DNA of 64,000 bases from Klebsormidium nitens (lineage: Eukaryota > Plantae > Klebsormidiophyceae), in the NCBI GenBank assembly GCA_000708835.1, contig DF237040.1, positions 148,611 to 212,610 of the forward strand. The letters are read 5' to 3'. The notes under the pieces are model-generated. The model saw only the letters and a list, made by a program, of their open reading frames with translations, ran no database searches and was not told the DNA's origin. Numbering within the stretch: the first letter of the stretch is position 1; each line of letters starts with the position of its first letter. Below are positions 670-59,700 of the stretch, piece after piece. The position numbers and the translations under genes were made by a program.

Positions 670-752
670 CGATGTAGGCGATCCAGCAGGGACAGCGGCG
701 GGAAGCGCGACGAGATGCCCTCCTCGCAGCGCTGTGCTTCGATCGAAGTTGT
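670..752 (-). repeat. Exon echo: decayed copy of the 3' end of VPS37 exon 1023-816
   Basis: gatccagcagggacagcggcgggaagcgcgacgagatgccctcctcgcagcgctg versus exon ggtcgagcagggactgcggcgagaagcgcgacgagatggccttctcgcggcgctg. Confidence 0.9.
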
Positions 753-815
753 AAGAATCAACCGAGAAGGACAGCGCCAGAGATCATAGAATTCCATAAA
801 CGTCTCACAACTTAC

Positions 816-2555
816 GATGTAATCGGTCGAGCAGGGACTGCGGCGAGAAGCGCGACGAGATGGCCTTCTCGCGGCGCTGCGCCTCGTCGAGCTGTTGCCG
901 CGCGGCGGCGACCTCCGTGGTGCGGATGATGTTGCACTGGTTGCGCAGCTCGCTCACCTCGTTCTCGCGCGCCAGGTTGCGGTGCGCGAGGTCGAGGTTG
1001 CTCGAGCGCAAATCGTCGCGCAACTGAGAAACCAGGAGAAGGCGCGTCAAGATCTTTAGTAAACCGAGCAGACGTGAAGCAGGGTTTGATTGGCAAGGAA
1101 TAGCGCGTCGAAGTGCGGCAGCAACGTCCCAATACTAGCGCGTAGGCCGCCGTGCGACTGGAAATAAACAGGGCAAGTGGAGGCTTCCGCACATATCTAC
1201 AAAGGGTGAATAGTCGGTCAGATGCTGTGTAGTAGCTCCGTGTTGCTAGGGCGGCAAATATCCCATCAGTGGCAAGTGAGGAATTTGACGATCTTCAGTT
1301 TGACGAATTGCGGAGGTAAAGAGCACATGACTACCCACCTTTTCTGCATGTTTGACGCTCTCGATGCTGCTGAGGAATGCCTTGTACGCGCTTGGGTCCG
1401 TCAGCAGCCGTTGCAACTCCTCCGCACTGCAACGAAGAAACCGGAAAAGTGGGCGTTAATACCAGCCCATTCTCACCGCAGATTGATAGCGGTGCTCACA
1501 GCGTTGCGTCTCCTGAGCGGACGTCCGCCGACTCTTTGAATCCAATCAACTGCGCAGCGTATGAAAGATTGGAAGAACCTGTCGAGACGGGTTTGTACAA
1601 GAAGCCGCATCTCGTCAAGGATTTTGGGCCGTTACGTGAACAAACAACCCTTCTGCAAATCATCTCCTGGCCCGTTCTGTAAGATACGTACTTTCAAAGA
1701 TCCGGGTCGGAGCCGTCATCAAGCGAGTCCATTATGTCACCTGAAAGTTTTCCACACGCAGAGTCTCGTGCAACAACGCACCCTCAAGAACTCTGGATCC
1801 GGATTCCTTGGAATCGAAAGGGCAGAAAGTTTTCCTACTTCTCAGGAATGATCCGCTCACCTCTTGTCTCTCAACGACGGAAAAGTTGTCGGTATCCCAG
1901 GCATGGGCGACGTGCTCCGGCCGCTGCTCCCTGCTGACCCAGGGGGGCTGCCGATTGGGCTATTGCCAGCTCGAGAGTACCCCCCCGAACCACTATACCC
2001 GGTATTCCTGGAAAACATGGTCACAGAAACGGGTAAAAAATGTCGAAAAGTGTGACGGGCACCTATTGGCCTTTGAAGGCGGCAACATGCACACGCGTCG
2101 ATGACCGCTTGCTAAGACGGATACGAAAGGGTCCTTCCAGACAGGGCATTCATGCAGAGTCTTTGAACCCAGTGCAGACTGGAAAGTAAAGCCCGCCTGA
2201 CCCCTGACGGGATGCAATGTCACCTTTGGATCCGGAAACCGCAAAGCTTTGCAGAAACGGAATAGTCGGTAGCCAACAGTCGTTCAGATCGACCGACCAA
2301 ACAGTAACAGGTTACGAACGTAGCAAAAGTTTCTTTGAAATCGTAAGTCCCACCTTCTGCAGCCCTGAAATTTCTGCAGACCGTGCACGTGATTGCTCTG
2401 GAATCAGCACCAAGCGGAGGATGCTTCTCCTCTTCCCCCTGCAGAATCTCCAAGTGTCTTTGCAAAGGAAAGCAGAAGAATTTTTCGGGTCGTAGAGTGG
2501 CTCTTGCGAAAAGTGGTGCAAGTGAGACTCACCCGTAGCCTCCTCTGTATGACAT
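816..2555 (-). CDS. VPS37: ESCRT-I subunit VPS37 (plant VPS37-1-like); 3' terminal exon not found in window
   Basis: Phase-consistent GT-AG exons 2555-2533, 2007-1861, 1426-1339 and 1023-816 splice to MSYRGGYGNTGYSG...IPTTFPSLRDKSAEELQRLLTDPSAYKAFLSSIESVKHAEKLRDDLRSSNLDLAHRNLARENEVSELRNQCNIIRTTEVAAARQQLDE...FSPQSLLDRLH. This matches the plant Mod(r)/VPS37 motif ELRNQCxIIRTTE. Confidence 0.85.
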
Positions 2556-4011
2556 CTTGTTGGCCACCAGCAGATCCACTAACGGCTTCTGCACAAAGAA
2601 TTGACAAGATTAGCAATGATGAAAAAGCCCTTCGCAAGGCTCACTCAAAACTTTCGAACCCACAAAAGCTGCTCTATTCGTGATATCCTTTGTCGAGTCC
2701 TCATCAGGAACTTGGATGTGGCAATCAGACGTTGTTCAAAATCCACTGGCCCGGGATACCAGAGCTGCAAGTCATCATCGCCACAGCTGGATCAGTCTAC
2801 GAACTTTGAAAAACGTCAAAATAAGACACAAAGTCATACTTCAGGTCCAGATGTTGGATTTTTGCCAACTGTCGTTCATTACTAGATCTTTTTGACACAT
2901 GGTGCCTTTGAGCTGCACGGATGCAGTAACCCCTGCTCTAGATCCCACTTCCTCCGGGCGTCTCAAGTCACGCACAAATGGCGCACCGCTTGAACGATCA
3001 AAGCACCACTTAAGGCAACGTGCTTCACGCCAACAAAAATACACCTCGCATTGCTTATCATTTGACGTCATGCAGATTTCTCTTCAAGTTACTCTCTTGC
3101 TGAAAAGTGGTGCGGGCGAAAGCAGGTGGAATCTCTGAAGGCACGGTCTGCAACAATACTAAACCCTTTCATGGCATCCTTGTTTAAAAGAACCTTTGCA
3201 TGTCCTTGGTGCGCCTGCTTCATTCGGGGCTGACAAGCACACGCCTAACCTTGTTCATCAGTCCGACCAATTCATTGAGAAGTGGGCCAGAACAAGGGGC
3301 ATAAGCGGGAAATACGATCATGTCTATGTTTGTGGGCAGGGGGTGGCCCCACTTGTTAAATGGCCAAGTTATCGTACGAACCGCTGCGATTGCAAATACA
3401 CGAAATAGGAGCAGCATTCTTCAAAATTTGAGTTTCAAAATAATCTAGGTATCAAGGGGGAGTGCACAATGAAGCTGCATGGTGCTATTCTCGCATCCAT
3501 TGGCGTCGAGTTACTTTCAAAGTTGTGGTGCGCTGCTGAGAGCCAATCGATATCGACTCCATGGAGTGCCATTGCTCAGCTCTGAGCCTCTGAAAGCCAC
3601 AAACAAGCAGAGGAAAGATTGGGCAGAATGAGAAAACTTCCGGCGTTCTTGATTGGTCGAAGCTGCACATCCCAGCTCTCATATTTGCACCACCGCAAGC
3701 TGAACTGGTATTTTACAGCATCCTCGGCAATCCATGACAGAGTAACGATCAAGGAGTCACAACCCACCAGCAAATTTGCAATGTAAATTTCTTGTCGCCT
3801 TGGCTCTGCCTTCTGCCCCACTCAGACTCGAGACTCTGCCCTCAGGGTCAGCCGCTCCAACTCTTGGAATTGTGCTTCTTTCCAAGCTGAAGATCGACCT
3901 TGAAAGCGCCTCCTCCAGCCGACTTTCCCCCCTGTAGAGCTGAACTTGCCATTGCCAGCAATTCTCGAAATTTTGACAAATTGTGAAGAGTTGCAAGACT
4001 CTCGCACTAGC

Positions 4012-4020
4012 AAACCCTAA
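4012..4020 (+). promoter_or_regulatory. Telo-box (AAACCCTAA) in the divergent VPS37/APC6 promoter
   Basis: Exact AAACCCTAA about 355 bp upstream of the APC6 ATG, between head-to-head genes. Confidence 0.5.
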
Positions 4021-4374
4021 TTCTCTGTTCCTGAGGCTGCTCGACAGCTTGAAACCTTGAGCATATGTTTTTAGGCGCTTGCAACAGTCTGAAAGTGCAC
4101 CAGCCCTGAGATTTAAAAGTTGACCAGTAAGTTTCTACAACACTGTCAACAGCACTCCTTCTGGCAATTCAGTCGTCTTAGAATCTGTAGGAGTGTCTGG
4201 TGGTTCTGGAAGCAGAACCTTGCATTGCAGTGCTTAGATCAATCGTTCACACCAAAACGGGTGTTCTTTCAACGCGTGACATTGGGCGGTAGGATTAGCT
4301 GCACACTCAGAATAGTGCGCTCCGTAGGAATTCTCAGCGGTGCGACTCTGCACCCATTGAACCAAAGTGCCACC

Positions 4375-7300
4375 ATGAATTTGGAGAAGCTGCGATCGGT
4401 GGTGCGCGACGCCCTTGGGAAGCACCTCTACTCATCGGCAATCTTCTTTGCTGACAAGCTGGTCACTGTCTCTGGGGCCGCTGCCTCGGACGTTTACCTT
4501 TTAGCTCAGGTGCACCGAACTTGCACCGGTTCTTTGTGAACACAGTGTGGTTGAGAGAGCGCATGTGTGTTGTAGGACCGCAGGATCACAAGTAGTAGTT
4601 TTGGAGCTCTCTTTGAGCCACGCTTATCAAATCTTGGTTGAAGCTTTGTTTGAAAGACCTCTTTGAAGTGGAGGCAAGGATTCCAAGAGGTAACTAAGCT
4701 GCCCTGGGTGTGGGCATGGGGCCTGATGACTGATTCTTGATGTGGCGCCTTGCACCGGCTGCCAAAGGTGGTTGGCACCGACGGCTGAATGCATTCCTGC
4801 TTAACCCGGCACATTGATAAGTCTCTCAAGCACTTATTCTGATCAATGATGGGGTCCCCTCACTCCCTTACGAGGCGCTTCTTGTTCCATCTCCTCAAGA
4901 GTCTGCTTTGGCAATCAATCACTGCCTTTCTATCGGAGGATGCCCTAATGAACCTTCTCACTAGTTGAGTCCTTTGATGTAGATCAGAGTGATGGCACTT
5001 TGAGCTCCACTGCCTTTTGCATTAGATTCCCTCCACCTACATGTTGCTCAATAAGATGCGAACCTGATCACAGGAGTGTTGCCAAAAAGCTTCAAACCTG
5101 GGACTAGATTACGAACAGTAGCCCCCGCAGTTGCAGCTTGCCTCCCATTGCATGCCACTTTGCCCTCCATTGTGGTGCAAGTTTACTTGGTCTAAGAGCT
5201 TTGCTCCATAAATTAGAAAGGATACACATGTTCCCAAACATGGCAGTGAAAACTTTCAAGAGACAATATCCTCCCAACCTGCCCAGGCGTACTACCTAAG
5301 CAAGCAGTACCAGCGGGCGCTACACTTGCTGCGGCAAGAGCACCTGCTGACGGCTGATGACCGCTTCAAGTACCTGGCTGCCCGATGCCTGGTGAGATTG
5401 CTTGTCTCTGTCTTCGTAAAGTTCAGGGACAGGCGAGAGCATCGAGCACTAATTAGGCCTTGCACCTGTGTTGCCTCGTTTTTGGCCTCCTAAGAAAGTG
5501 AAGCTGAGATTCGGGAAGAAGGCCACCCTGTTCAGACTCTTTGGTTGTGGTGACGGTACATATTTAGACGATGGCTTCAGATGGCTTTGTTTCACCAAGA
5601 ACTTCTGAGCTGGAGGAAGAAGGTAAAATTTTCTCATCTGGCTGGAACACTTCTGCGATGTTGAGTCCTCTGTGATGACGGATTCATCTTTTTCAGCTCC
5701 TGCAATGGTGACCGAAGGGAGGTCCAGCCTGATTGTCGATTTGTTTGATGTCATCAACGAAAGTGTTTCACGGCTCAAGAGCCTTCTTTCTCTATCCACT
5801 TGCACTCATTTTACACTGAAAAACCCCCCTGGGACACACGAGAATCCAGCATCACGTCATGGTATGTATCTCTCAGGCGGAGCTGAAAGAGTGGGACGAG
5901 TGCCTGGTGATGCTGGGGGATGACGAGAGCCTGGCCGAGCAAAGCGGCCAAGCCAGCGAGGGGGAAAGCATGGAGCTGAATGGGGAAGGCAGGGAGATCA
6001 ACGTAAGGGCTTCAATCAACCCAGTTTTTAAAGTTGAACCGGGTGGGGTTTGTTTGAGACAACATGGCAGTGTGCGGACTACCAAAGTTTGATCATTTAA
6101 GTCGCTGCCGTGCAGTTTGCTTTGGCGTACCCTACGTGCTTGAGTTACGAGCCTTCGAGATTGGGGAACCGTTTGACAGTTGTCCATTCAAGGGCCAACG
6201 CAAGAGCAAAAGCCCAATCCTTCTTTTGTACGCGGTGGCCTCGCCCTGCCAAATCCTTGCCAAATCAGTTTTGTTTGAGCTTGCGCTGTTTGAGTTTGCG
6301 CAAGGAATGCACGAAGATCGAGGTTGCTTGTCTTTCAAGATGCATCTTTACGCCTTGCAGATTGTTGCAGCGAACTGTCTCCTTCGAGGGCGGGCGTTTG
6401 AGGCGCTGGACAATCGGACAAAGGCCCTCTTCTGGTCAGTGTCCCAATCCTTTTCCTTGTGTTCGTCAAGACTCTTTTGTGATGGATACTTCGAACAGAA
6501 TACTCGCATGGTGGTTCTGATGTCTCGTAAGTGTAATTGATCTCCCCTGGAACAACTTCCCTCAAACAAAATCAAAGGACGCAAGCGACGGAGTCATGTG
6601 AAAGCCTGCCATGTTGTCCCCTTCTTCCACAATTCACTGGGCACGGTCGACATCGGTTGAATTGTCGCACGTTTGGCGAGATGTACCCACTTCTGTGAGC
6701 ATTACTGGTCTGGTTTCAAACCTGACCACATGCTAAATTCGAGCACTTAGCGAATGTAGCTCACAATCTTCGTTGATGCAAACCTTGACAGGAAGATTGT
6801 TGACGTCATACTGACGGATGTTTTCACCGACTGTGCAGGTACAAGGCGACACTCCGAGCGGATCCGTATTGCTACGAGGTGAGTTTACTGTGTGTTTCGA
6901 TAGGTGCCTTGTCGAGTCGTCAAATGGCTGCTCAACTTTCGGAAGCTGCCGTCGAAATCGAAACTTCGATTCTCGAAAGCTGATGAAGCTGACCCTGTTT
7001 CCAGTCAGGCCTGAGCTAGAACGGGTGACAACCGTGCATGCTGTGAAAGTGCTTGAATGTAGAAAGCTAGGACGGTCAGAAAGTCTCGAAAGATGGAACT
7101 CAATGTTCGTGTTCCTCCGCTCTCGCAGGCCTTCGAGCATTTGTTTGACAACCGCATGCTATCGGCGGATGCAGGTGAGACAAGGAACCTTGCATCCAGG
7201 ACCCCTCTCATTGTGTGGCTGATTTCCGCTGTGCAAATACCGTCTGCCTTCCATCACGAGCTCAGCTGTTCGCATAGCAATTGACTTGTCTAAGCAGTTA

Positions 7301-10300
7301 GACTGCGTTTCTACCGCGTTTGTTTATGTATCGATTTTCATGATCACTCGGTTTGCTGGATTTTGACGAGAAGCTCGTCCGATCATTGCAGAAGCGAAAC
7401 TCTTAGACTCGTTGAAGTTCCCGGCGGAAGACCGGTGGCTGGCGCTGCTTTACCAGTGCAAGAGCGTGAAGGTGTGCTTCGGAACCTCTCTCGGTTGGCT
7501 TCGACCTCGGTTCGACCTAGATCTGATGGGCCTTAGAGCAGCTGAGCCGCTGTCTCGGTTGATTGCGGTGCTCACCCAGAGCTATGTATGCGTTTCTTAG
7601 GACATTCGCCCTGGATCCTCTAGCATCAAATCGATTCGGCAACGAGCAGGCAAGGCAAAGGGTATAGTTCTGCGAAATCATATTGTTCTTTCGCGCACAG
7701 TTGTACATACTTTCTTTTGCTGCAAGGTCTTCATATTTCAATAAGCACGCTTCCTTTGGAAGCGCACTCCGTCTACAGCTGCAGCTGTTTGAGGAGCGCG
7801 CTGCAAGATGGTACAACCTCTTAACCGTGTCCGCTCGAAAGGACCCACCTGTCTTTCTTCATCTGGTCGTCTTTTTGAACAAGTTCTGGTTTCTGAAAAT
7901 TTCCTTTCAATCTCAAACTCCGGCCATTCAGCGGCTCGCAGCGGCCATTGAGGAGCGCGCTGCGGAGCTCCAGCGGTCGACACTTTCGACCCGATCTCAA
8001 CACTATTCGCGCTTAACGACTTCGCGATTTACATGTCTGTCCCCATTGTCGCCCTCATTTTACCTTTCCGCAGGAAAAGCGTTCCTTGATTACTTCGTTC
8101 CCTCTTAACAGTTCGGCCCGCCACTATCTGAAATGTTTCTCGTTCTTTCTGACAGTTTGGCCAGCGGCTGTTTGAGGAGCGCGCCGTGGAGTTGGAGCGG
8201 TCCGCCGATGACGCGCCTAGCACGAGCGGGAGCGACGGGTGGGGGCTGCGGGGCAACGGGGACCTTTTGGCCTGCCGCGCTGATAACCTGTACCACCGGG
8301 CGGAGTACCAGCAGTGCTACGACCTGACGAAAAGGTGACGATTGTCCGACGCCTGACTTACGAGCACCATTTGCACTGACTTCTAGTGTGCCTGAGGGCT
8401 GATACAAGAGCGCAACCAAGCCACTAAAAAGCAGGGGTCTAGTTACAGGTGCTTGAGAAGGCTCGGTCTTGGAAGCGGAGTGTCGGCCAAACGATATCCT
8501 TTTTCCGAGTGATGGTGCCATCTTCGCCATCCTCTTCGTTCGTTCGACAGAACTTCTCTCTGCCCGCTGGATTGCTTTGACCAGATGATTCAGTGGCCGG
8601 AACAGACTTTCTGGGCCAGGACCTTAGCATAGACATCACCACCTCACAAAGTCTCGAAGCGCCGGGCCCGCGACGGCATGAAGTGATTCTTCAGTCAGGA
8701 CCTTCTTCGTCGTCGTCAACGCCTGTGACTCTTCCTGGGGCGTTCGACTCGTACCGAGCGCTTCCGCTTTGGATATTTCCCTCCAAGTGTTTCTTCGAGG
8801 ACAGAAGACCTTTGATCTCATGACGTGCATCAGATGCTTTGTGCCAACGGCGAGGCGTAATTTCGAGTCACCCTCAACCCTGCAGCGTACTCGAACGGGA
8901 CCCGTATCACTTGGCGTGCATGCCCGTCCACGTGGCAGCCGCTCTGGAGCTGCGGCGCAAGAACGAGCTGTTTCTGCTCGCGCACAAGCTGGTGCAGGAG
9001 TACCCCCAGAAAGCCGTCGCGTGGTTTGCGGTCGGGGCCTACTACAGCTGCATACGGAACTACGACTCCGCGCGGCGATATTTCGCGTAAGTCGGGGTTA
9101 AGGTTTCAGCCTTTTGGGCTTTGAGATTGTACTGCTCTATGCTGCCGTGCTCGTTTATAGAGCGTGGTTCATTTTCCAAATCTGCAGCTATTGTATAGTC
9201 AAAAGCGGATCGACGATGAGGGGTTACAACCTTGGCCGCTGTGCCACTGGTTGGTTCTTTGGTACGTCCCCTGATGTCGCCGGCTGAGCCCGTCACCACA
9301 GCTCTCGCTTCAAATTTGATTTTCCGGTCCCGTCCTTAACTTGGTGTGTGTCGCTCTTCAAGCCCTTGTCAAGCTTGGTTTCCTAGTCGTCCATGTCCTC
9401 TCGAGAATTGTTGTCCAGGCTTCTTTGTTGTCGTTATCAATCCCGCTCACGGATCTCATAGCTCACTGTTCTTGCAACGTGGTCCGCTCTTTGATGGTGC
9501 ATACCCGTGTGAGCAAAGCCTGCCTTCTGATTGAATGGATACCCGCACCTTTCCTTATAATACCTCTTTATCGGCTGTTTCCTGAGGGCTCCATTCTGCA
9601 CTGATGGACGTTTCTGGGTTCACTCCACTGCGCTTGATGGGATTCACATTCCAACCACTCATCAGCTCTCCGAGACCCTGGGGATACGTCCTCCTCACTT
9701 CATTTTACGGTCGTACTTCCTTTGTTGCAAAAGCTTACAATGATGGCCTGGCAAAATAGGGTCACTTGGGGGCCATGGTGTGCATGTGCTTCGTGTGGCC
9801 GAATGAGCCAGTTGTGTTGTTGTTGGCACTGAACGCCCTCGCTCTGGTGGAAACCGAGCACTGAAGTGTGGGTTGAAGTAGGCAGTCGATGAGACTCCGC
9901 AACGACATGCAAACGTACGAATTCTGAGTCCTGAAGCCTAGATTTCTGAAGATCAAACTCCGTTTTATCTTGGTAAGGATGCCGGTAAGACTATCTTCGA
10001 TGCTAGCGGACGTGTCTGTTAACCACGCTCTGGTGCACGTGGATGTAGGCCGCAATAGGAGTGTGCCTGCGAACCTATTTGGACGGGTTTATTTTTATGC
10101 TTTTACTGCATCTTTCTGCATCTGATGAATCGATTCTACTTACTTCATTTCTGTCCACGTCCTTCGTGCTCAGCAGTCAGTCTAATCGTGTAGGCAAAAA
10201 TCCATTTCGAAGGGCATTGCTGATGTCGTTTCTTGCGACCTAGGCAACAAGTCTAAATGACAAAGGAGGATTTCCGGAAGGCAATGACCGACGGTCACTT

Positions 10301-13300
10301 TGATGGACCCAGTCACACACTTACACGGGTGTCTGTGTTGATTGCCCTCCAATCCTCGTGAATCCAATCAAACGGTCTCTCTAATCGGAGTTTCTTATGT
10401 TGCCCTCGATCCTTGTGGCACTCTCCGGGCCGCCTCGTTGAGCACCTAGTGATAAGTGCGTGCACCTTGATTTGTTCAAAATCTATAGCTTCTGTCAATT
10501 CCATCTAACCCAAAAGCTTTTGACGGGTCCTTTACACTGATGGTACATTGTGGTGCCATTAGGAGCAGTCTTTGTAATGGTTCTCAAGTTGCCCCTATTG
10601 TATGCGATTCTATCCTCTAACTTTGCTTCCGTTCTTTAGAACTGTGCTCGTCTATTATAATTGTGGTGCGTCGAGCTTCGGGCTTAAGACGATCACGACA
10701 AGTGCCCCTGGTCGTCCAAGGCCAGGAAATTCATCTCGCAACAACAATCACGGCGTCGATCTTATGACCTTCTTTAAAAAACCTCTGCTCTAGTCGACGG
10801 ATGTTTCGCTGTGATTGTCCCCATAGAGTGAATGCAGCATCGGAAGCAGGCAATTGTACAAGTGGCAGAAGTGCGAGCCAATCACTTGTCACGCTCGCGG
10901 CTCTAGTAGCACCTGCGGTGATTGTACTCGCCTGGCGGTATCGCCATCACAACCAAACAAGAGTCCTTGAAGTCGAAAAGGTGACACGTGTCAGTTGCTT
11001 CAACTAGTAAATATAGTAACCCGTCTCAAGCCATTTTGAAGGTTTGAAGGCGTCTGAAGGCGGCAAATTTTCGAGGGCCGTGAAGATGGTCTGGGCGACA
11101 CTGCCAGACAGCGTGTCCTCGAGTCCCTGTGTTCACTCTCGTCTTCAACCAACAGCAATGCGAGCCTGACCGTCTTTACAGATAGCAATCTCAGATGGAA
11201 CGCTGAGGGACGAACAGAACTAAGCCGTATTCTGGATTTGTACGCTCGCTCAAAGGAAATACTCGAGGCCTGCAAATATCAGAACGTCCCGGTCCCCTGT
11301 TTTACCTAGCACGGTCGATAGGGTTGTTGCCACTCTGTCTTATGCCTTGTCTTTTGTGTGCCGTCAGTCAATGCGTCTCCTCAGGGCCTGGCTGTTCAAA
11401 AGCAACAGACTTGGCTCCGTTGCCTTTCCTTTAGCAGTTTCTGTCAATTGGACAGTGAAGATGGTGCATGCTGGCGAGACAAGCCAAGCATGAGGCTGCA
11501 CTCCCTGATGCCCGCAGGCTTTGGTGCGCTTCTAGAAAACCAGTGCTGCTTCCAAAGACGCGACTTGGAAGCAGACTGCTTGGGGCGTTGATCGAAGGAA
11601 GAGACGACCGGTAAAGCCCCGTCGTTTGCACGATAAAAAAACTCGGTCTCTTTTGATTGTGCGTTTGCTGCCGGAAAATAAAGTCATGCCCAAGAGCTTG
11701 GCACTCGGGGCATCGTCAACCTTATGGGTCCTGGTTACGTACTTGAGGTTCTTGGTAAGAGGTACGTTCACGCGGGTCCCTATCGCCTCTCATTGGCCCA
11801 CTGATCGGCCCGCTTTGCTGAGGTTGAGACGTCAAACAAAGCAATTTGAGTCCTGCTTTTCGACCTCTAAAGCGCTTCTTGCGCTCTCGGCGTCGTGCCC
11901 TGAGTTATTCCCGTCATCGAGTCATCGCCGCATACTGCGGTCCCCACCAATAGGTTTCCTTCTTTTAATTTGGATCACTTTACAGCAGGAGCGGATTCAC
12001 AAGCTTCCAAGCAGATCTTTTGGTGGCATGATGTGCCCACAGTTTCTATCGACCCTGGCCATAATTGGCCAGCACCTCCTTTTCAACGAGCACTGAGGCC
12101 CCACACTTATGTTGGACAGCCCTCCAGTGATAGTCCTGCATTTGCTTGTTGGGACGCATGGAGGCTAAGCGTATCCAAGTTGGTTGACTTGTCACGCTCT
12201 CGCTTTGACAGCCTTTGGAGCACTGAACGCCGGGGCTTGTCACGTGCTTCGTTCTTCCGCAAGGCGTTCAGTGAAAGTCCATGTGCGGAAAGGCCGTCGG
12301 GACGCCAGGCAAAAGATGGCCAGCTGCTTAGCGTGAATCATTGCCAGCTCCGCCCATTGATCGCCCTTCTTTTCGAGGTCATAATCTATGACCTGAATGA
12401 CCATAGAGTCATTTCCGGCAGTGTGATTGCCTCTTGTTGCCTTGAAATCGAACTAGAGGCTCCCCTGATAAGGTGATATTGTTCCCCTCAATCGAGTCGA
12501 AAATTCTGGTCAGCCTCTTACACTTGTGCGACTATTGCATTTTCAAACGGTCTTTGGGATGTGAAATAGTAAGTGTCAGCCAGTATCCGCAGACAGGCCT
12601 TTCGTCTCCATACGAGGAGATAATTCCCGTTGTGACAACGTTGTGATTTTCAACACTATGATGCACAAATCACATTCTGTTGGGCACAGCCGAAGCGCTA
12701 ATCATTACTCGAACGAGGCCTGGAAAGGGAAGATGAAGCACGTCAGTTCGTGTCCAGGCAGCGTGTGTAAATGAAAGCTGGCAACTTTCGAAGATTGCCT
12801 ACATTGTGGCCGAGCCTTTGGGAGCAAGAGACGCTTGTATTATCGGGAACGCCACAAAAAACAAAGCGCTCTCTCGCTTTTCCGATTCAAAAAGACCTGT
12901 TGAAACGTTCTTGAAAGCGAGCTCGTCGCTCGGTCTTGCACTTTGTGTCAATCTACATGGAGTGGAGCCCCACAGCTTCAGCAGAAGCCTTTTCGGAAAT
13001 GCTAGTCTCACTTCCATCTCTTTTCGCTGAGGAAAGTGGTTTGTTTACTGTATGCGAGACTACTCTCTCCATTGTCGTTCTTGGTCTTTCGCCTCCGCGT
13101 AATACCACCGCGAATCTTTGTCCTGCTCGCTCTGGCTTATGAAAAGAGATCCTTTGTGAATTATTACTGACTGATTCTGGTCAGCGGTATTTTGATTAGC
13201 TTCAAGATGTCTTTTACGAGAATGGAAACATTCATCTTAGGCATCGCCGATATTTCTGCAAAATTCGATTTCCCAGGGCAATGACGATGTAGTTGCTCCA

Positions 13301-46866: not shown

Positions 46867-49800
46867 TCAAACTTGACTTGCTTCACCTCGGACTGCTTTC
46901 TGTATTGCGCTCTTGAACTTGAACTTTGCGGCAGCAGCAACATGTTGTCCATCATTGGCCGAAGCTTTCATCGTTGCTATCTCCTTGCCGGAGGCATCCC
47001 CGGATTCGACGTCAGTACCTTCAGCACTTTCTTCGGCTCTCTTGATGCCCCTCAAACTCTTAGCATTCCATTGTTCCATTACCTTGCTCGTCAGCTTATT
47101 CACGTACTTTCGCTTTGCTATCTGTCCATTGATAAGGGATATTGCAATGGCAAATACAATGGCTACGGCCAGCACGACCCAAAGCCCAAACACCTGCAAG
47201 TAAACGTAGCCGCCAAACTTTAGCATCATATCTGCTCGTCAACAGGTTTCACGATTCGCAAGTTTCTCAAGGTTGCTTTATTACAAACAAAAGAACGGAG
47301 TGGTGACATTGACTCCATCAACTCTGCAGCAGTATACTGTTTTGCAAGAAACGACCCGCGTTCTCAAACAAAAGCTTTCTCGAGCCAATCATGCACCAGC
47401 TCAACCAGGCGACTCATCGGTGCAGAAGTGAGTGGCAAGCAGAAGTTGTAGTCCACATCTCTTGCAACGACGTTAAGACCGCAAGAGGAAGGAGCCGGGG
47501 GGCTCGGGGGGGGCGGCAGCCCCCCTGATTTCCGGTGTAAATAAAGGCCCGGAGAATTGTAATGGGCAAAGCATCCTCTGAGAATTACCTGAGAGAACGT
47601 CACTGATTTTGTGGTTGCGGAATACACGGAGCAGGTCGCGCCTTGCGTGAAGTGCACTGTTTGCAGCCTGTCCAACTCCCCGGAAACCTCCATGTCCAGA
47701 ATTGCGGCGCTCAAATTGGCCACCAGTGCAGGATGCGCTCCGGGCCAGAACGCCGTTGCATAGTTCATGGAAGCAAACTGGTCTTGCTGCAAGGCAAGAA
47801 GGTAGAGCCGTTAAGGTTCGGTTCAGCCGTCGGAGTGCCAACACTTCGAGCCCCCCATCACAGCTTCTAGGTCAACTAAACCACTCGTCCGACATTCAAG
47901 GGCCCAATATCATGCTGGGAATGTAAGGTGGGCTAACTTCGTTCGACAACTTCCGCAGCTAGCAGGCAGCAATCAGGGAGAACTTGTGATTGACACACAG
48001 CGGAGTCGATTTCGGTGGTGCTTGTTGATGCTTGAAGAACGCCGTCAAAAAGTATCCAGTGGATGAAAGCGGAGGCACCGTTCCCCCTTCGATACCATAC
48101 AAACAGAACACAGCGGTACGGTTGCTTTCACATCGATCCAGGTTCTGAAGACGGCAATCACTTACAAGATGATAGTTGCAGTCCGTCGAGGATAAGTACT
48201 GCACCACAGCGATGTCAAGGACGAGCGCAACGATTTTCCCGCTCTGGAGATCGCCTAACATAATCTCGAAATCCTCGTCGTTGTTCCTGGAAAGCAAACG
48301 TAGCCAAATCTCAGCCGGCAACTTTTGACTCGACAAGGAGAATCGTATGCAGTCCGGAGCGCATGCGAGTAATGGACTTATTTTGTGCGAAACTGCGTTC
48401 GTCGACAGTCGTAGCTAGGCAAGAATCCGCTTGTTTGCGCAGTCGTGTTGATCAAGCGCATATCAGGCGTGCGCAGGCAAGCAACGACTTGAGGGGAGAC
48501 GACAACCTTGACCCTTGAGAGCCTTTGAGCAAGTTTATTTTCGTAGCCATTCGGGATCTGACGCTCACCAAGGATAGAGTGTGGGGAGAAGCCCAAAGTT
48601 GGTCAGTGTCCCAGCGTCCCCTTCCCAGGCGCCAAAACTTTTACCGCGTAAGTCGTATCTTGCTGCAAGTTAACGGTGAAAGAGTCCGAAGTTCAGCACC
48701 AAGACTCCGTTGCAAAACTGTCATCCATATTCTACAGAGGGGCAAATCCGAAGCTTCTACCTATGTTGTGATCGTTTCATGTAAGCTAAACCGTGCTGCT
48801 AGAAGAGCGAAATTGCGCCGCTCAAGAGTAGCAGTCCAGTGTTCGAAGACACTAAGTAGCCGAGCTACACCAGCGCTGCCGCATAGTTCAAGCCGTTAAC
48901 AAACGCAGCAAGCCTGCTAATAAAGCCCTCAAACTTGGGTATCTGGTCGGATTCTTCTTTGCAGAATCTTGCTGACTTTCCCACCCTAGGTTGAAGACTC
49001 ACTGTTGATGGTGGTTTTGAATTGTTGAATGGTCAACAGGGCCGCTGCGTTTCCGGTATACATGGTCAGAAGAAGTAGAATCATGAAGCACCACACAAGG
49101 ATGATGAGGCGGGAGGCCAGGGAGATCCCCGTCAAGGAAGCAGCTTGAACAATCTGGCCCAGTGCTGTTGCAAGAAACGGAGGCAATTGTCAGCCTTGTC
49201 AACTTCATATTAGACCATATCTCTAGCTTACGCCTTCCCAAATTAGACGAGGCTTTTGTTTTAGCATTTTTCATTTGCAGAGGTGAAAGTCCACATCCCC
49301 CGCTGCGAGAGGCAGCAGTGCAAAGAGCAGAGTAGTGAAGCGAGTGCTAACAGCTGAGTGCCTCACTCCAAAAGCCCAAAGGGATTGGGGGCTTTGCAAG
49401 CCGCCACCTCTCTTCGCGCCTAAAACAAGCAGCAAACCGTGGTGATAGTTGTTCGATCAGACATCCGTACTGTTTTTGGGTTGTGGACTCCTCAACCTGC
49501 CCTCTCAAAACGTAGAAAAGCGAAAGTTGACACTTACCCATCCACATGGACTCGAATAGACCATGTTCCCCCGTAAAAGACACTCCTGCTCTGACTTCCC
49601 GACTTGTGTGCTGCTTCGAAAGTACCTCGACCAAGTGGACCCCGAGACTTACTGCAAGGGCTGCAAGCAAGGCACAGAGTGTTTGAGTGCCGGAGAGTCC
49701 AGGCAGTGATATTTGTTGCCAAGGAAATGTAGCAAAGTACACCATTGACCAAACACCTCGGTCATTCAAAAGATTCCAACCAAAAGTTTCTCATGTCACA

Positions 49801-51363
49801 CATTGTTGTGGCTTTCAAGCTGCGCAACCAACCCTCGAAAACCAGAGTCATGCAAGCGCTCCGCTCGAGAAAAGTGCGGAAGTACAGCACTTGATTACAC
49901 CTCACGGAGTTTTGTTGATTTGGGACTTACCAGCCACAATGAGCATTCCCCAGACTTGCCATGCAAACGGCTTAGTGAAGATCCAGCCATCGGGCTGCTG
50001 TAGTTTGGCATAGACCATCACCGCCAGGTTGTTGTGGAAGTCTGGATATGCAAACTGAACGCCTTCGGCCAGGAAGTCGGGCCGGATCTGCGGTGCCGGG
50101 AAGAGCCTCATGAGACTCAGAGGGTCTTGGCTGGCATTTCTTACCAACCTCGATCAGCCCTGTTTTAGCAGCTAGGTCACTAGTAATCTCAGGAACAAGG
50201 AACCGTGCAAGCAAAGTTTCACATAGGATGGATGTCCACTCTTGTCAATGGCCCTGCCAATGGCTCTGCTGAAATGTGGGGTCTCATTTAGTCAAAGAGC
50301 CCTCTTGGGGAGCCGTTTGAGAAGATCAGGGTAAGAGCTTTAAGAGTCAGCTACAGAACACATCATGACTTGGTTAAGGTTTCTGGAGAAGTTCTGTAAC
50401 ACTAAGCAGGGGGTCAACAAGTCAACACTACAGGTTCGAAAAGGGACAGTTAGGACAGCTGAAAGCCCATGCTTTGCTTGATCACACCTGAACCTCTATG
50501 CAACTAGAATGTCTGCAACTGCATCAATGCCTAAAGTCAACAAAGAGGCTAGACCCCTACATGTTGACTTGTTCGGCAGCAGCATTTGCTCTTCCATGAC
50601 AATCTATGCCAGCCTGTGCTATGCAGGCCTCTGGTGATGTCTTACCTGCATATCTGCTGCTGTTACATCACACAAGGCATAGATCGAGGAGTTGAGGATG
50701 TCGCTTTGCAGTGGGTCATAGTCCAGGCATTCCCATGTATAGTCGTCCTTCGACCAACCTGCTTTTGATGCAGCCTCCTCGAATACCTTGACTGCATAAC
50801 CTGAATCATGGAGCGAGAATGCAGGTGTCAACTTTCAGCAGAATAAGTGCAAGCCGGGTGGAGATGGTAGCAAAGGGGCTGAACCAACGAGCATGTATAA
50901 GTGGCCCAATGTAAGGGCATTGTTATGGCTGTTATCAAGGCCACACCTTTACTGTTGAGCTCACACATGTGTGCCAAGGCATGAGCTCGCCGAGCAAGCT
51001 CTAGAGGACGGAACCCCGAGGACGAACTCTGGCACCTTTGCAGTGCACAGGTGACACCTATCAGCAATATTGAACTTGAGGTAGCAATGAGTCTGCAAAC
51101 AGTCACATCTTCAAGGAGCCACTTGGAGCCTGCCTAAACTGCACAATGGTCTTACCTCCATAGGTTGAGCTGTCTGTGGAGCCTAGGTCACAGGTGGAGT
51201 AGGGAATATTGTAGACCGTGCAGACCGTGTATGTCTCATTAGGCGCTTTAGGATAGTCTAAGACACGAGCCTGTGCACTTTGAAAGAGCTGCACAAGAAC
51301 AGCCATGACAAGGAGGGCACCGTGCTTGAAGCAGATGCATCGCATCCCGAGGGTCACCGCCAT
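46867..51363 (-). CDS. Ionotropic glutamate receptor-like channel lacking an amino-terminal domain (about 510 aa)
   Basis: Exons 51363-51156, 50800-50646, 50087-49931, 49651-49538, 49164-49003, 48662-48568, 48286-48166, 47786-47589 and 47193-46867. Order: signal peptide, S1 (GYAVKVFEEAA), pre-M1 WIFTKPFAWQVW, pore helix GLFESMW, M3 SRLIILVWCFMILLLLTMYTGNAAALLT, S2 (DLRGK; AAILDMEVSGELDRL), M4 VTFSQVFGLWVVLA. Confidence 0.85.
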
Positions 51364-52496
51364 GATCCCAGGATGATGGAGCTCCAGTACTCCAATCTAT
51401 TGACCGTCTCTCGTCTGTCTAGTCCTAAAGCTGGCGGCACGTCTGCTTTGGCTGCTCAGCAATATATCGAAGAGCCTGTAAGGGCAACCGCACAACTTAC
51501 TTAGCGGTATTGCCAGTTGTTCTGTCCAAAGCGATGTTGGTTGTCCGGCTTGTTGGTTGAATCGTTCAAAGAAGAACAACGCATTGAATCTGAACGCTTG
51601 TGGCAGCTTTACTACGCGTCAATTCTCAGCATGACACTCGATCTGCCTTGTGAGTTACTCCTCGCGGGCGTGCTCATCGGAACTTTAACCTGAATCCTTT
51701 TGGCAACTCCCTTGTCTCCCAATTAGGGGCTTGTCTCTTGAGATTCCCAGCCCCGCCCCGGGCACCTCAACCAAAACCCCTAACCCAAAAGCTTAGGCGC
51801 TCCCCACCCCTACCCACCCAACCACCAAACCAACCCTCTCCGCTGCAAACCTTAGGAAACAAGCCCCTAGCTTGGTACCAGCCTTGAATCGACCTGGGTA
51901 CTGCATGGGAACTCCTGACTCCTGAGGCTGTCATGGCGTCAGCTTCCATCTGACTCTGAGGCTTGAGCTCCACGGAGTCACCAAATTAATTTGTAATAAT
52001 TACCGTAACGCCGCCCTGAGTCGCTCCTGTCGATCGCTTTCGAATAAACGCTTGACGATACCTATTTCAGAGGATGTTCCACTCGGTGTAAGTCACCGGG
52101 CCTGCTTTCACACTCAAAATCAGGGGGGCAAACGCTCCCCCGAGCCCGCCCACTCTCTCGTCTCACGGCCTTGCATAAATTGGACGGTTAAACTGGTAGG
52201 TACTTGTCACCGGAATTGGCGGAAACTAAGTCCAACGGTACGTACCACGGTACCAACCAATAATTAATTCATCTGTGAGATGATACGGTAGATCCCTCAG
52301 CTCAGGCACAAGGTGATCATTAATGCCACGGTCCACCGGGGTCCGGTCGCACTTCCGTCATCAATGCCGCTGATGTAGGACTACACCGGTATTCGGATTG
52401 GTGCCGCTTGCGGCGGCTTGGTGGCCACATGATTCAATCGCGAGCCTGCGGCGAGACCCAAATTCCAAGGCCTCAGCCAGTCACAGTACCCGCCGC

Positions 52497-52585
52497 ACAA
52501 GCAGCGTTCCGTATGTTACAAGCAGCGTTCCGTACGTGGTCACGGGTTGACGGGTTGACGGGCAATGGTCACGGGTTGACGGGTG
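52497..52585. repeat. Short tandem duplications (ACAAGCAGCGTTCCGTA x2, period 21; GGTCACGGGTTGACGGG x2)
   Basis: Directly visible in intergenic DNA between the GLR-like gene start and the GT61 3' end. Confidence 0.75.
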
Positions 52586-53717: not shown

Positions 53718-56700
53718 TTAATTTAAATTTGGGTCCATTTCACCCCATTCAAAATAGAAGTTTCCTCGTACATACTCGGGAACCGGTGGATCCTCCGCAG
53801 TTCCATTTGCTTTTTGCAGTAGGTACCGCTTCGCGCACCGCAATGCCAAAATTGCCTTGCTATTTTCAAGCCAAAGACTCTGACCCATGTAAATATCCCG
53901 CCATGCTAGATAACCTTGCTTTTGGTACACCGCATCCGGGTCCCTCCTCACGTCATCGTCAAATCGGTACGCTTTGGAGAGGGAGCTTTCCCACCAAGAC
54001 CCTTCGTACTCTATATACTTTAGCCCTTTGGCGACCGCGCCTTGCCCGTAGTGATGATCCGCATGCCAGTCTATGCTAAACGGCACGATTTGAAGCAGAA
54101 CCGACCCCGCTCGCATAAACAAAAAGTTTGCGAGCATCGAGTTGTGCACACCCGCGAAGACGTCCAACCCCTGCATCCACTGGAACAGCTCCTCAATTGA
54201 CGCGTACTCGGGGATCAGAACCACGTCGAACCCAATCGCTTTTGCGTAGTAAATGAACGCCTCTTCGTTTATGATCCGCCGCTCCGGGCCGCTCCGCAGA
54301 GCCAACCCCAGTTTCGGCCGGTTCCTATGAGTCCGAGGCTCTGGTCTCAACCGGGCACTTTTCACCACGGGAAGAAGCGCCTCGTCCTCCTCGGAGAACC
54401 CATACCCCGGGTGCACCAGCGCCTTCCACCGGTCACTAAACTGGGCGCCACTGACGAACGGCGGTAATATTGGATTAACCCGCAGGTTACCGTGCGTGGT
54501 TAAGCCGATCACCAGCTCGGGGAAGCAGTAAATGTTGCGGTCGTGAGTGTTTAACTCGGGCCAAACCTCCGCTTGGACAGCGGCCCGCCTCTCCTTGGCC
54601 CCCGGGATCGGGGCCCACTCCCAACTGCCACGTGTCCGCTTGCTGCCACGTGTCACGCTCTCGTCAACCGGAACGGTTCTCTGGCCCGCCCCCAACCCAC
54701 TCTCCGTCTTGTTTGCAGCGACGTCTTTCTTCTGCCATGTCCACAGCTGCAAAAGCTTCCGAAAGAAGGTTTTGTCTTCTCCCCTCCCGTCCTCTTCATC
54801 CTCTAGTTCCGAATCCTCCCACAGATTAACCCGCTCTAACCCCGCGCTCAGAGCCCTGTCTCGCTCTTCTAAACCCTGCCCTGGTTTCTCCAACCCCTGC
54901 CCTGATTTTTCCAAACCCGCGCCTAACCCCTCCGGCAACCCCTCCAACCCCAGAGCTTTCCGTCTCCTGGTTAGCAGCGGCAGCAGATCCGCCGGTTTCT
55001 CAAACACCGCCCGCGGATCGTCACCCCCGTGTTCCGCACCCTTAACCCCTTCCTCAACCCCAATATGACCAACTTCTTCGCCCTCAACGCTCGCTGAGCC
55101 ACTCCTAACCCAGTCCTTGACCCGGGCGTGCTCCTGGTCGCGCTCGGTTTCAACCCCGGGGCCGCCAATCAGAATGGGGGGGTACTTTGACAGCGTTTTG
55201 AGCACCCCCCGGAAGTGTTCTAGCCACCACTCGTGCCAGTCCAGCAGGAGGAAGACCACCTCGCGGTCGTACTTGAAGCTTGTCAGGATCAGCGGAACGA
55301 GCCTGGGCGGAAACGGATCAACCTTAGAGCGGAACGGGCTGGTCTAGGAGCACTTAACGAGAAGGAGGATGAGCCTGGGCGGAAACGGATCTGATCGAGA
55401 GGGGAACGGGGCGATTTGCAAGCAGATCACAACAGAGAAAGGCGGAACGAATTGGGGATAGAGAGCAACCAACGAGGGAAACCTGACGCAGAGAGTCCTG
55501 GCGTTATAGCATAAGCTGAAGCGAGTCAACGACAAGCGTGAAGCATCTTTTTGAGGATCGTTACAAAGTACGAAGTCAAGAACGATGCGTAGGATCACAA
55601 TGATAGGCTATCAAACAGGAGGTCTCGTATGTATTGGGGTAGCAGATACCAACAGCCCGTGGAAAGCTTAAGGCCTCAAGCAGAAGTGTCCACCCTTCTC
55701 CTTAGGACGCCGCAGAGAGAAGAAGAGCGGAACGCAACTGAAAGGATAAAAATCCATGATGACGCGATAGAGAAAACACGACGAAAAGGGAACAGATATC
55801 AGCACTCAGAAGTTGGAACTCGAAAACATACATTCGTCGAAAGAAGAACGTAGCAGACGAGAGGAACAAAACGGAGAAACGTGCTCACGTGTCTTCCAAA
55901 GCGTAATAGTAGTTGTCCGCTTTTCCCCCGATCGAGAACACGACTCCCGGTACTGACACGTTGCGGTTGCAGTTGGCCAGCTCACGTGCCACGTCAGCAT
56001 CAGTTTTGAGGCCGTAACTCGTCAGCTCCAGGGTGGTCGTACTGCCGGGCGCGACCTCGCCTTTGGCCTTTCGCGCGTACGGCGTGACGGAGAGAATGCC
56101 GGTCGGGGGGTTCTTCCCGGTCGCAAACATTTGGAAGGTCTTGGAGTCGGCGTATAGCTGCAAAAGCGAGGTGATCATGATTAAAACCCATTTTCTAAGT
56201 GCGCTTTGAACCCATATGAGATCTGGATTCGGCCTGCAGCGTAAAGAGATGGAAAGTTTGCCAGTTGGGGTGTTCGTCCCGAACGCAAACATCTGGAAGG
56301 TCTTGGAGTCAGCATATAGCTGCAAGGGGAAAGTAATCTTGATTCCAATTTGCGCTTTCTGCCCAGTTGAGATCGAACTCGGCCTTTGGCGCCAAGAAAC
56401 GAAGAGTTTGCCGGTCCGGGGACTCTTATCAACTGCGAACATCTGGAAGTTCTTGGAGTCGGCGATTTGCTGCTAGCGGAAAGAGATGGACACTTTGCTG
56501 ATCGGGGGGCCCCTCTTGGTCGCAAACATCTGGAAGTTCCTGGAGTCGGCATATGACTGCGAGCCGAGAGTGACAAAGCTTTCAGAAAAATTGGAAGGCC
56601 AGGGGCGCTTAACTGTTGCTCCGGTTGCACTCAAACAAGAACTGCCAAGCGTCGTGTAGGCCGGGGGACCTTTTCAGGGCGTCTTCACAAGCAAACAGAG

Positions 56701-59700
56701 ACTCCTTTCTGCTCCTCATCGTGAGAAAGTATCTTTCTTTACCTGGACATTCCCCCGCATGGTACAGACGTCGCTTCGGCGTTTGCTCCGGTTGCATTTA
56801 CAGATACAGACAAATCCTCTCGTCTCCCTGGCTTTGCTTAGATATAATCATTTTCTTGTAGCCAAGAGATCTTCGTCCTTACCTGGACATTCCCTCGCAC
56901 AGTGCAGACGTCGCTTCGGGGATTGCTCCGGTTGCACTCAAAGATGAACTGGCGGGGGTCGTCAAGCCCGGGTGAAACCACCGGGAACTCTGGCGGCTCG
57001 CCTTGCCACACTGGGGGGTCGTATCCGATGGAGACGCCCAACCGGATGCCCTCCCAGACCCCGTTTTTCTGGAGGAAAGAAGCGCAGCGACTTAGCTCAA
57101 AAATAACAAGAACAGCACTTTGACAGAAGTGAGAAAGGAGAACAGTGGCATGGTTTTGGGGCAGAGATTGTCTCAAGATCTGCCACCGTCGAAACTCGCC
57201 CAATGCCAGGTCAATTGGAGAAGAAAGGCGCAGGGAATCAGCCAGATGTAATAGAAAACAATGCAAACTGTTGGAACAGGGAAAAGGAGCGAGGTCATGG
57301 AGCATGGCGGCAGGGCTTTCCTTCATCGACACCAACGAACTTGCTAGTCGTTGGTGGCCTTTGCGGGAATGCGGGTAGCGATTTTGGCTTGACTTGCACA
57401 CCAAAGACACTGTGTTAGAAGCTTGATGGCGAGAAGAAAACAAACGGCCGAGGTGAGAGCGGGCCAAAGCGTGTGCATCCACGGTTTGAGATGGAGCGTG
57501 AAGCAGTTCTGACGCAATCCTTCAAAGAACAGAATCGAAAGCGTTGTGGGCAGACATCAGTGGAGGAATGCAGAAAGGAAACAAGCAGAGGGAATGGAAA
57601 CCACGCGAAGGGAACGGAAACACGCAGAGGGCTCCTAAATACAAAACCGTATGGAGAGCCTCTGAAGGCCCGGTCAGCGTCCGACTTTCTTGGACATATG
57701 AGAGAGTCATTGGTCTTTGCAGACCTGGCTGAAAGCAAGACGCGTCATCAGATACGGCCTCAGGTTTAGAGACTTCATGAAAACAGCTTTGAGCGTGAAC
57801 GCTCATCTGTGATTTATCATTGCCGTCTGACGACCCAAGTGTTGAACAAGCGGCGAAGCTAGGCAGCTAGGAGCTTCCAGAATATGATCCAATCCGAATG
57901 CATCGCTTTCGAGTGGTCCGACTGGCGTTGCAGGGTCTCGCCTCCACTCGCTTTAGAGAAGACTTTGTGGATTTTTCAAACTTCCAATGAAGATGAGTGC
58001 ACGGACAAAACCCATGAAATTGGGCGGAGTCGAAAGTTTTCTGTGCACGACAGGCGACGTCTTCAAACTCCAGGCTCTCCTGGGCTCGCAAGCTCACTTC
58101 CCGTTAAGACAATGATCAGAGCTACATTTGGAAGGAAACGACTTGAGTCCCGACAGAAAATGGTGATTGAGAGCTCACGACCAGTCCTTACAAACGACAC
58201 GATCGAGCTCAACACTATAGAAGCTGAAGAGGCTTCCGAGGAATCGACCTGGGAAAGCCCGAGTCCATCCTTACTTGAACAATGGAGTTTGAGGGCCGGA
58301 CGTATCGCTTTCACAAATAATGCAGCAAAGACACAACGCCACCAGACCATTCTCTTTGGCCTCCTAATGAAATCAGAGAAGATTGAGCGGAATTTAAGGA
58401 AACGACTTTGGAACTCATCTAGAGAAGTATGTGACCAGATAAAAGCTTTGGGTACACGTTCGTCAGTGCCTTTGTTGCATAGTCAGTATTTTGGAAAGAG
58501 GGGAAGAGATATTTCAAGGATCAGACGGCGACCTGAGGACAGTGACAAAGAGCGCCCAAAATCCAATGACTTTCATATCACTTTTCCTTTACTCGTCAGA
58601 ATCCAACTCTCAGACGGTGAAGTATATAGAGCCTCTGCCCTAAACGGAGGCAAAGTCCCGGAAAATATAAAGGGGTGCTGAAGAAAATCTGTCACTTGCG
58701 ATGCATAGACGTGGCTTGGTAACTGCCAAGCTTAATCAGGCAGATGGTAAAAAACGCTGGCGGACGTGACCAGCCGAATGCATCACACTAACGTAAAGTC
58801 CAGTGGGTATCTCCTAACTGATTAGAGCTAGAGCTCAAGCTTACACCCGAAGCGCTCTAAGCAAATCTCAAACTTGATCAGAATGTCAATCTTGCACAAC
58901 AGACGATGTCATGCACAGCAATGACTTGGCAAGGCAATCAAAAAAAGGTGGTCATTATGCGAATCGTTTGTGACCGCGGAAAGGCTGTCAGGAAACATAC
59001 GCGAGTGAAAACACACGAGAGCGACGGTCAATGTTTGGGCCGTTCAAATGACGGCCATGGCTTATGCAGCAAATTCCAGTGACGGGCTGTATGCAGTTTG
59101 AAACGAAGCTGGATGTTTGAAACGTTGAATGGGGTCAGCGGGGTATTCTCCTGCGAGCCTGGGCGCAAGTGCCCAGCTCGAAACTGCCGAGATACCTGAG
59201 AAGTGCGGTGCAGAAGACGAGGAGCGTAATGCAGAACTCTCTGTGGGACACTTTTTGCAAAGGTCCTATCCCTTTCCGATTACGACCTTTATGCAAGGAC
59301 GAAGAATTAGGCGCTCTTCCAGCACAACGGTCAACGACGGTTGCTCGCGGAGAGAACAGACTGCAAGGATGAACAGCTTCTGTGATGGCAGTTGGTTTGC
59401 AGTCAAGAAGCGGCAATGAGCGGGTAAGCTGATCCTCGCCGTCAAAAGATGACAAACTCGTGATGTAGTATCTTTACTGCAGACCGGATTCAAGATGGCA
59501 ATCCCCGGGAGTCAGACTTAGCAAGGAAGAACTAAAACAAGCCCAGTACGAGTTTCAGCACATGGACGCATTGTTCATGAACAGGAAATCCTTGCAGCGT
59601 TGTAGCAGGCAGATATCATACGGTTTCTGGACGGAAGAGAAAATGCTTCTTGAAAGAAAGGTCGTGCGAAGCTTTCAAAGCCCTGAAAATGGCAGACAGT

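Follow-up and report, generated by a model that had tools for sequence, protein, structure and literature searches.

Decayed copies of exon-intron junctions in adjacent introns of four genes of the streptophyte alga Klebsormidium nitens

Results and discussion

Genes of the window and the copied junctions

We analysed a stretch of 64,000 nucleotides of Klebsormidium nitens (contig DF237040.1, positions 148,611 to 212,610 of the forward strand), referred to as the window and numbered from its first letter. In four of its genes, VPS37, APC6, a ZIP transporter gene and a glycosyltransferase 61 (GT61) gene, introns hold decayed copies of their own exon-intron junctions, which are called echoes here. 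The G+C content is 47-60% across the window and the introns are eukaryotic GT-AG introns. Eight gene models were built by hand, and the junction counts come from 41 complete introns and one cut intron, which give 83 junctions (41 acceptors and 42 donors); 19 of the 41 introns correspond to RNA joints and the remaining introns were modelled from GT-AG ends and open reading frames. Pfam matches were obtained for 8 of 10 protein stretches scanned and include VPS37 (Mod_r), ZIP transporter, GT61, DUF1005 and TPR repeats, the last accompanied by a weak ANAPC3 match. The APC6 model has 13 exons in a clean frame of 540 residues, and its exon 11 shares 69% identity with a protein from Sphagnum, 63% with one from Mesostigma and 52% with one that bears the name APC subunit 6. 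The named relatives of the ZIP transporter are land-plant proteins of the At3g08650 type, with about 40% identity. The relatives of APC6 and ZIP therefore place the source organism among the streptophytes.

Some observations on these genes stand apart from the copies. VPS37 and APC6 lie head to head at 3768-4510, where RNA contigs, which are strandless, cross both 5' ends, and VPS37 carries a 1,179-nt intron ahead of its likely start codon. The 55 metagenome loci with 28-52% identity to APC6 exon 11 were judged to be generic TPR proteins, not orthologues, and were left unused. The last ZIP exon is 75% identical to a protein labelled as coming from the mite Oppiella nova, compared with about 40% for land plants, and this match is likely algal DNA inside that assembly.

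The echoes and their source exons are the following.

670-746, minus strand: VPS37 donor echo; period 145 bp; matches 75 nt of exon end with 85% identity; GT changed to GA
816-1023, minus strand: VPS37 exon (Pfam Mod_r); real donor at 815
7781-7801, plus strand: outer echo of APC6 acceptor 8155; offset 383; AG lost
7939-7978, plus strand: inner echo of APC6 acceptor 8155; offset 223; homologous AG lost
8156-8334, plus strand: source exon (APC6 exon 8); RNA joint found in all 4 runs
14367-14421, plus strand: echo of APC6 acceptor 14478; period 98 bp; AG kept; site score 6.1 against 1.1 for the real site
14479-14604, plus strand: source exon (APC6 exon 10); RNA joint found in all 4 runs
15276-15532, plus strand: APC6 acceptor 15614 echoed twice, at offsets 334 and 167; AG kept in both
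15615-15881, plus strand: source exon (APC6 exon 11); RNA joint found in all 4 runs
16119-16606, plus strand: four echoes of APC6 acceptor 16719; offsets 607, 446, 297 and 119; three keep AG
16720-16819, plus strand: source exon (APC6 exon 12); RNA joint found in all 4 runs
36228-36448, plus strand: two echoes of ZIP acceptor 36583; offsets 317 and 194; both keep AG
36584-36817, plus strand: ZIP exon 3, source (predicted)
55344-55410, minus strand: echo of GT61 acceptor 55303; period 72 bp; mainly intron part; AG kept
55889-56157, minus strand: GT61 exon from which the acceptor-56158 series derives; joint found in all 3 RNA runs
56248-56573, minus strand: three echoes of GT61 acceptor 56158; offsets 162, 312 and 399; all keep AG
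56616-56805, minus strand: two echoes of the GT61 exon end and donor 56882; offsets 307 and 138; the inner keeps GT
56883-57068, minus strand: GT61 exon from which the donor series derives; joints found in all 3 RNA runs

Nine junctions carry copies above all controls

When each junction was searched against its adjacent intron with a query spanning the junction, nine of the 83 junctions scored 21-46, compared with a maximum of 17, followed by a gap to 12, among 2,870 controls of the same type. A query limited to the 60 exon bases at the junction, run against as much as 600 bases of the neighbouring intron, gave scores of 23-52 at 8 of 83 junctions and at most 19 in 5,740 cross-gene controls. 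Decayed copies of exon-intron junctions thus exist in adjacent introns, and the alignment of exon flanks against controls that the preliminary description of this DNA had proposed yields an excess when run in the window. The nine junctions carry 18 copies, so that roughly one exon edge in nine is affected: one in VPS37 (donor 815), four in APC6 (acceptors 8155, 14478, 15614 and 16719), one in ZIP (acceptor 36583) and three in GT61 (acceptors 55303 and 56158, donor 56882). The preliminary description had located copies in exactly these genes, which is borne out, but had counted at least 12 boundaries and called the phenomenon window-wide, and neither holds. The other 74 junctions are indistinguishable from controls (p=0.27), and no copies were found at the 36 junctions of the other four of the eight genes, namely a small secreted gene, a gene at 26-31.5 kb, the DUF1005 gene and a membrane protein gene that we take to be glutamate-receptor-like. 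Candidates at 7128, 16820, 1860 and 57069/57243 were rejected with scores inside the control range, and the deep parts of two 5-kb introns contained no further copies (4 of 4 at background).

The anatomy of the copies agrees in most respects with what had been described. They occur on both sides of introns, at 7 of 41 acceptors and 2 of 42 donors, an acceptor excess below significance (p=0.09), with one to four copies per junction. Periods had been given as about 70-200 bp, which is roughly right, the actual range being slightly wider at 72-223 bp (median 155 bp; 11 of 18 within 138-178 bp). Between 6 and 89 exon-derived nucleotides are aligned per copy and a whole exon is never copied. The splice dinucleotide is kept in 13 of 18 copies (AG in 12 of 15 acceptor copies, GT in 1 of 3 donor copies), and the alignment score drops outward in 5 of 6 multi-copy series. 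All copies are in direct orientation; reverse-complement queries stayed at background level. Self-alignment of the window displays about 20 direct repeats spaced 64-446 bp, and Tandem Repeats Finder detects none of the arrays. The best score between different junctions was 12 among 36 pairs, inside the control range, and an introner or transposon family was rejected on this ground, as had been argued before.

Introns grow by these copies, which make up 2,662 of the 36,103 intron bases (7%) and 2-97% of the host intron. The array at APC6 acceptor 16719 occupies 72% of its intron, and the 56158 and 56882 series of GT61 together account for 706 of 725 nt (97%) of one intron. The median intron length in the window is 609 nt and its introns have little sign of transposons. 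Introns with echo junctions are longer than others (median 815 against 579 nt, p=0.02), partly because the arrays add length.

Splicing takes the site nearest the exon

None of the sequencing runs used here for splicing is recorded as RNA; they were taken to be RNA since GT-AG introns are missing from their contigs. Four runs from four studies were available for VPS37/APC6, with 15 of 26 joints listed, and three runs from two studies for GT61, with 6 of 6. At all eight junctions examined in RNA contigs (four in APC6, the VPS37 donor and three in GT61), the exon-nearest site is taken, as expected if junction duplications survive through use of the innermost site; at the VPS37 donor, contigs of four runs depart from the window sequence (loose end 814). 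Each array lies inside one spliced intron in RNA contigs, with no new intron between copies, and no joint at an echo site was found among the joints listed. One run labelled as DNA contains spliced joints and at least two genotypes, and junction positions are conserved in it.

A splice-site matrix was built from the window's own 41 acceptors. Six echo acceptors score above the real site or within 1.5 bits of it; at APC6 16719, for example, echo sites score 11.2, 10.2 and 12.0 against 10.4 for the real site. Use of an echo acceptor would lead to an early stop in 10 of 13 cases, and transcripts using echoes could therefore be hidden. The first ZIP echo and two GT61 echoes remain in frame. The first echo of GT61 56158 is in frame and stop-free and scores 9.2 against 10.4, so that message decay could not hide its usage, and no joint is listed for it. 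Unrelated minor GT61 joints of depth 4-7 were detected beside main joints of depth 56-253. Since contigs drop rare variants, the bound on echo use is loose and zero use is not implied.

The minor GT61 joints use an alternative acceptor at about 63422 (62929-63422; two studies) and position 57391 (one run), neither of which is an echo site. In the 5-kb introns at 9087-14478 and 57069-62231, RNA contigs give cover at a low level and fragments of dispersed repeats occur, with loose ends of RNA contigs at 11515 and at 57502-57631.

Divergence and growth of the arrays

Differences between exon and copy amount to 15.4, 14.4 and 27.2% at codon positions 1, 2 and 3 (n=325, 320 and 324; chi-squared p=2e-5). 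This pattern is what is predicted for a neutral copy beside an exon that is free to change only at third positions, unlike a second coding exon, and the copies contain frameshifts, indels and deletions. A CG-deamination signature was not found, with 29 of 168 CG sites mutated against 134 of 723 others (p=0.74); the CG and mutation counts rest on 15 of the 18 copies (offsets 98, 119 and 72 left out).

An origin by short local duplication, as had been proposed, is supported by homology over the whole period at 3 of 9 junctions (p 0.010-0.020; combined p=0.001); the spacers of the other six are at background. Alignment runs of 248-267 nt at 71-72% span two periods. Copies are clustered over junctions (variance 0.48 against a mean of 0.22, p=7e-10). 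At APC6 16719, three copies have in common a 2-nt insertion that is not in the exon; at GT61 56158, three copies have substitutions in common that are not in the exon; and at APC6 15614, both copies have one breakpoint and one period (167/167). Because echoes share derived states missing from the exon, the arrays grew partly from earlier copies in a minisatellite-like manner, and the earlier idea that every copy arose by duplicating the junction anew is not supported.

Outside junctions, duplications of 29-222 bp were found in the window, one of them 97% identical. This is a young 66-bp tandem duplication at 19564-19698 that is wholly intronic, and no other local duplication of its size in the window is nearly perfect. 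Unmasked non-coding DNA has a weak excess of near over far similarity (score of at least 11 in 46 against 22 of 1,242 overlapping windows). Pooled over the copies, identity falls from 77-87% in the first 75 exon bases to 63-72% in the 30 junction-adjacent intron bases and to 40-67% farther out, the last being near random for these alignments.

Relation to known systems

Introners are dispersed families that create introns in algae, and they resemble the echoes as repeated, intron-tied algal sequence, whereas the copies here are local and unrelated between loci. Gao and Lynch are said to have described internal gene duplication as a route of intron gain in 2009.

A much closer likeness exists in amphioxus, where "mirages" are described for Adh3, the globins BflGb6 and BflGb9, troponin C and PGBD5 in passages of two papers (PMC3087553, PMC3902484). 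According to the passages of the former, a mirage is a tandem duplication that takes in the 3' end of an intron together with the 5' part of the exon, or else spans the opposite boundary. The unit sizes given are 150-160, 157 and 10-72 bp; AG or GT persists in many units, splicing is left undisturbed, the length of mirages is unstable and the mechanism is called unclear (PMC3087553). Imperfect mirages of 60 and 108 bp appear in passages of the latter (PMC3902484). The echoes likewise are direct, adjoining copies of intron end and exon at both boundaries, with AG/GT kept in many but not all, normal mRNA (8 of 8 junctions) and turnover within clusters, and the 150-160 bp unit reported for globin mirages compares with a median of 155 bp here. 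The copies therefore match mirages, an already named kind, here in a new lineage, and the preliminary description was wrong to state that no named system existed. They differ in occurring in a streptophyte alga and in being older, mostly 74-91% identical to the exon and 62-89% to one another, against 81-100% given for BflGb6; moreover, Tandem Repeats Finder misses the arrays here, one array can contain different periods and spacers are often unalignable.

Other systems share single features, as far as the passages of the respective papers go. In human F7 intron 7, the first unit of a 37-bp variable number tandem repeat (VNTR) spans the exon-intron boundary, and the downstream donor copies are functional but silent, the first site being taken (PMC1557585). 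The silence is like that of the algal copies, but the VNTR is one locus of short near-identical units at a donor only, whereas 7 of 9 junctions here are acceptors. In the potato RdRp gene, an intron was gained by tandem duplication of an intron-exon structure (PMC4974935); this too is a local plant duplication that copied branch point, pyrimidine tract, AG and exon start, but there a cryptic donor turned the copy into a new exon and intron, and here no copy is spliced in. In chlorophyte algae, tandem repeats are enriched near intron ends (PMC3887541), which is alike in proximity to junctions, but these are chiefly short motifs (GT/AC), and exon copies are not described in those passages. In our literature search, in which subscription journals were thinly covered, such copies did not turn up for Klebsormidium or any other alga, nor did exon-to-copy conversion. 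What is new here is the occurrence in a streptophyte alga, an intron filled to 97%, and exon-derived parts that are far better kept than spacers.

Origin of the copies

We favour, with a probability of roughly 65%, the explanation that the echoes are short tandem duplications, re-amplified by unequal exchange, tolerated by splicing and likely functionless debris. Short tandem duplications, head to tail and about 70-220 bp long at birth, would arise throughout coding and non-coding DNA, and those internal to exons would mostly be purged. A duplication that straddles a junction would leave an intact intron end and a whole exon on its inner side, and the mRNA would stay unchanged if the exon-nearest site wins, by exon definition at acceptors and by first-site choice at donors. 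A seed pair could then amplify by misalignment into clustered arrays. As a fourth step, the exon copy, held by selection, would probably rewrite the neighbouring copy occasionally by gene conversion. With selection and conversion, exon-derived parts would remain recognisable after spacers and purely intronic duplicates had faded, and such uneven fading would therefore make the arrays resemble partial copies and a junction-specific process.

Several observations weigh against this explanation. Some echo acceptors remain as strong as the real one, and low-level echo use is possible, given that 11 joints are unlisted, contigs drop rare forms and 10 of 13 echoes lead to early stops. No copy exceeds 91% identity to the exon, so ongoing activity at junctions is not demonstrated. 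Six of nine junctions have no detectable spacer homology to the flank presumed duplicated. In a simulation of seven junctions, spacers were far more diverged than expected for one neutral duplication whose age is taken from the exon part (combined p=9e-8), and the excess remained at 1.5 times (p=4e-4) and at twice the spacer rate (p=0.02). The gene-conversion step was brought in to account for these over-diverged spacers. Conversion, large indels omitted by the simulation, ascertainment, templated insertion or selection are all possible causes; the sequences hint at exon-to-copy conversion, which we prefer and which appears clearest at APC6 15614, where the exon part of the inner copy is 91% and that of the outer copy 75% identical, the outer breakpoint is common and spacers are near background. 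Finally, an unbiased scan of 6,334 windows gave 172 at threshold against 0 in displaced controls, and its loci comprise 9 junction, 4 purely intronic, 3 intergenic and 2 exonic ones; 9 of the 13 intron-touching loci thus lie on junctions, compared with 15-31% expected uniformly (p of 0.005 or less without bias), and simulated detection at the copies' apparent age was unbiased (95-100% against 97-100%). At 0.3 substitutions per lineage, as would apply if the spacers give the true age, intronic duplicates were detected in 12-28% of cases against 40-100% for junction ones, and a 3-fold survival or detection bias brings the junction enrichment to p=0.06-0.29 for units of 100-160 bp and 0.011 at 70 bp.

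More tentatively, the long introns of this alga may be built largely by nucleosome-sized local duplications, with exons serving as converting master copies or with duplications aimed at exon edges. A related and somewhat less probable proposal is a mutational process targeted to junctions, in which breaks or nicks favour exon edges, owing to nucleosome borders, splicing-coupled R-loops or the repair of exons that are CG-rich and methylated, and in which repair copies about one nucleosome of DNA, either in tandem or as a templated insertion nearby in the intron. The enrichment of intronic loci at junctions would fit, as would the concentration of periods in 138-178 bp, similar to the 150-160 and 157 bp of globin mirages, the size of only 64-67 bp of three of the four purely intronic duplicates, the six junctions lacking spacer homology and the slightly CG-richer ends of echo-bearing exons (6.1 against 4.5 CG per 60 nt, p=0.05); passages of one paper also report CG gene-body methylation in Klebsormidium nitens (PMC5890265). 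However, the 18 periods are non-independent since arrays re-amplify, short units may be counter-selected if the inner copy requires its own branch point, CG sites in the copies are not mutated more than others, and old duplicates produce just the bias under which the enrichment weakens. Homology also extends past the likely branch point at 55303, 56158 and 16719, which opposes a lariat-derived cDNA template; an origin from lariat cDNA was set aside for this reason.

The remaining explanations fare worse than both. That the copies are selected as splicing elements that tune splicing or mRNA level, whether as acceptors of a decoy or "poison" type or as exonic enhancers stored in introns, appears improbable to us: kept AGs, the six strong copies, early stops and the persistence of exon-derived parts beyond spacers would suit such a role, but 80% AG retention is about what 75-85% identity and alignment anchoring would give, no echo joint is among those listed, copies hold frameshifts and deletions, GT is lost or absent in 2 of 3 donor copies, and 74 of 83 junctions manage without copies. 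Still less probable are remnants of whole-exon duplications, former alternative exons later trimmed, to which the up to 89 nt of exon with a splice site and the three in-frame echoes in ZIP and GT61 could point; against them, most periods fall short of a source exon with its flanks (exon lengths 100-1,247 nt), both exon ends never occur in one copy (one site at most), and the 15.4% and 14.4% differences at codon positions 1 and 2 together with indels betray no coding constraint. An assembly artefact is hardly credible. Although the sole DNA run aligned may be the source sample, one of its contigs covers 55096-62422, GT61 arrays included, unbroken with 0 differences and 0 gaps, an RNA run from another study covers the 56376-56722 bin with no listed difference, and the copies diverge by 5-26% from their exon, a divergence not expected of mis-assembly.

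The echoes extend mirages from animals to an alga of the plant lineage, which suggests that mirages are a general by-product of short duplication. The GT61 intron filled with copies of its flanking exons is a direct record of intron growth free of transposons, and the matched real and decoy acceptors, some equal in strength and in frame, could be used for questions of 3' splice-site choice. Extrapolated from this one window, a rate of 9 in 83 held genome-wide would provide thousands of test cases. If exons do act as master copies, or if exon edges are the target of duplication, exon definition would be skipping thousands of decoy acceptors that are strong and even in frame, a natural experiment across the genome, and transposon-free intron expansion would be common to lancelets and the algal relatives of land plants.

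Other features of the window

The small gene at 18970-21133 encodes a secreted-looking, cysteine-rich protein, and an RNA loose end connects 20317 to 21010. The receptor-like gene (46867-51363, minus strand) encodes a membrane protein of 511 residues in nine exons with short introns, has no echoes at its 16 junctions and gave no Pfam match in the single exon scanned. At 21998-22268, between genes, 34-bp terminal inverted repeats (94%) flank an AT-rich core, which looks like a miniature inverted-repeat element. The last DUF1005 intron contains an inverted repeat at 44240-44400, and a 107-bp repeat occurs in two inverted copies (70%), one in an intron of the receptor-like gene (47475-47581) and the other intergenic (52067-52172).

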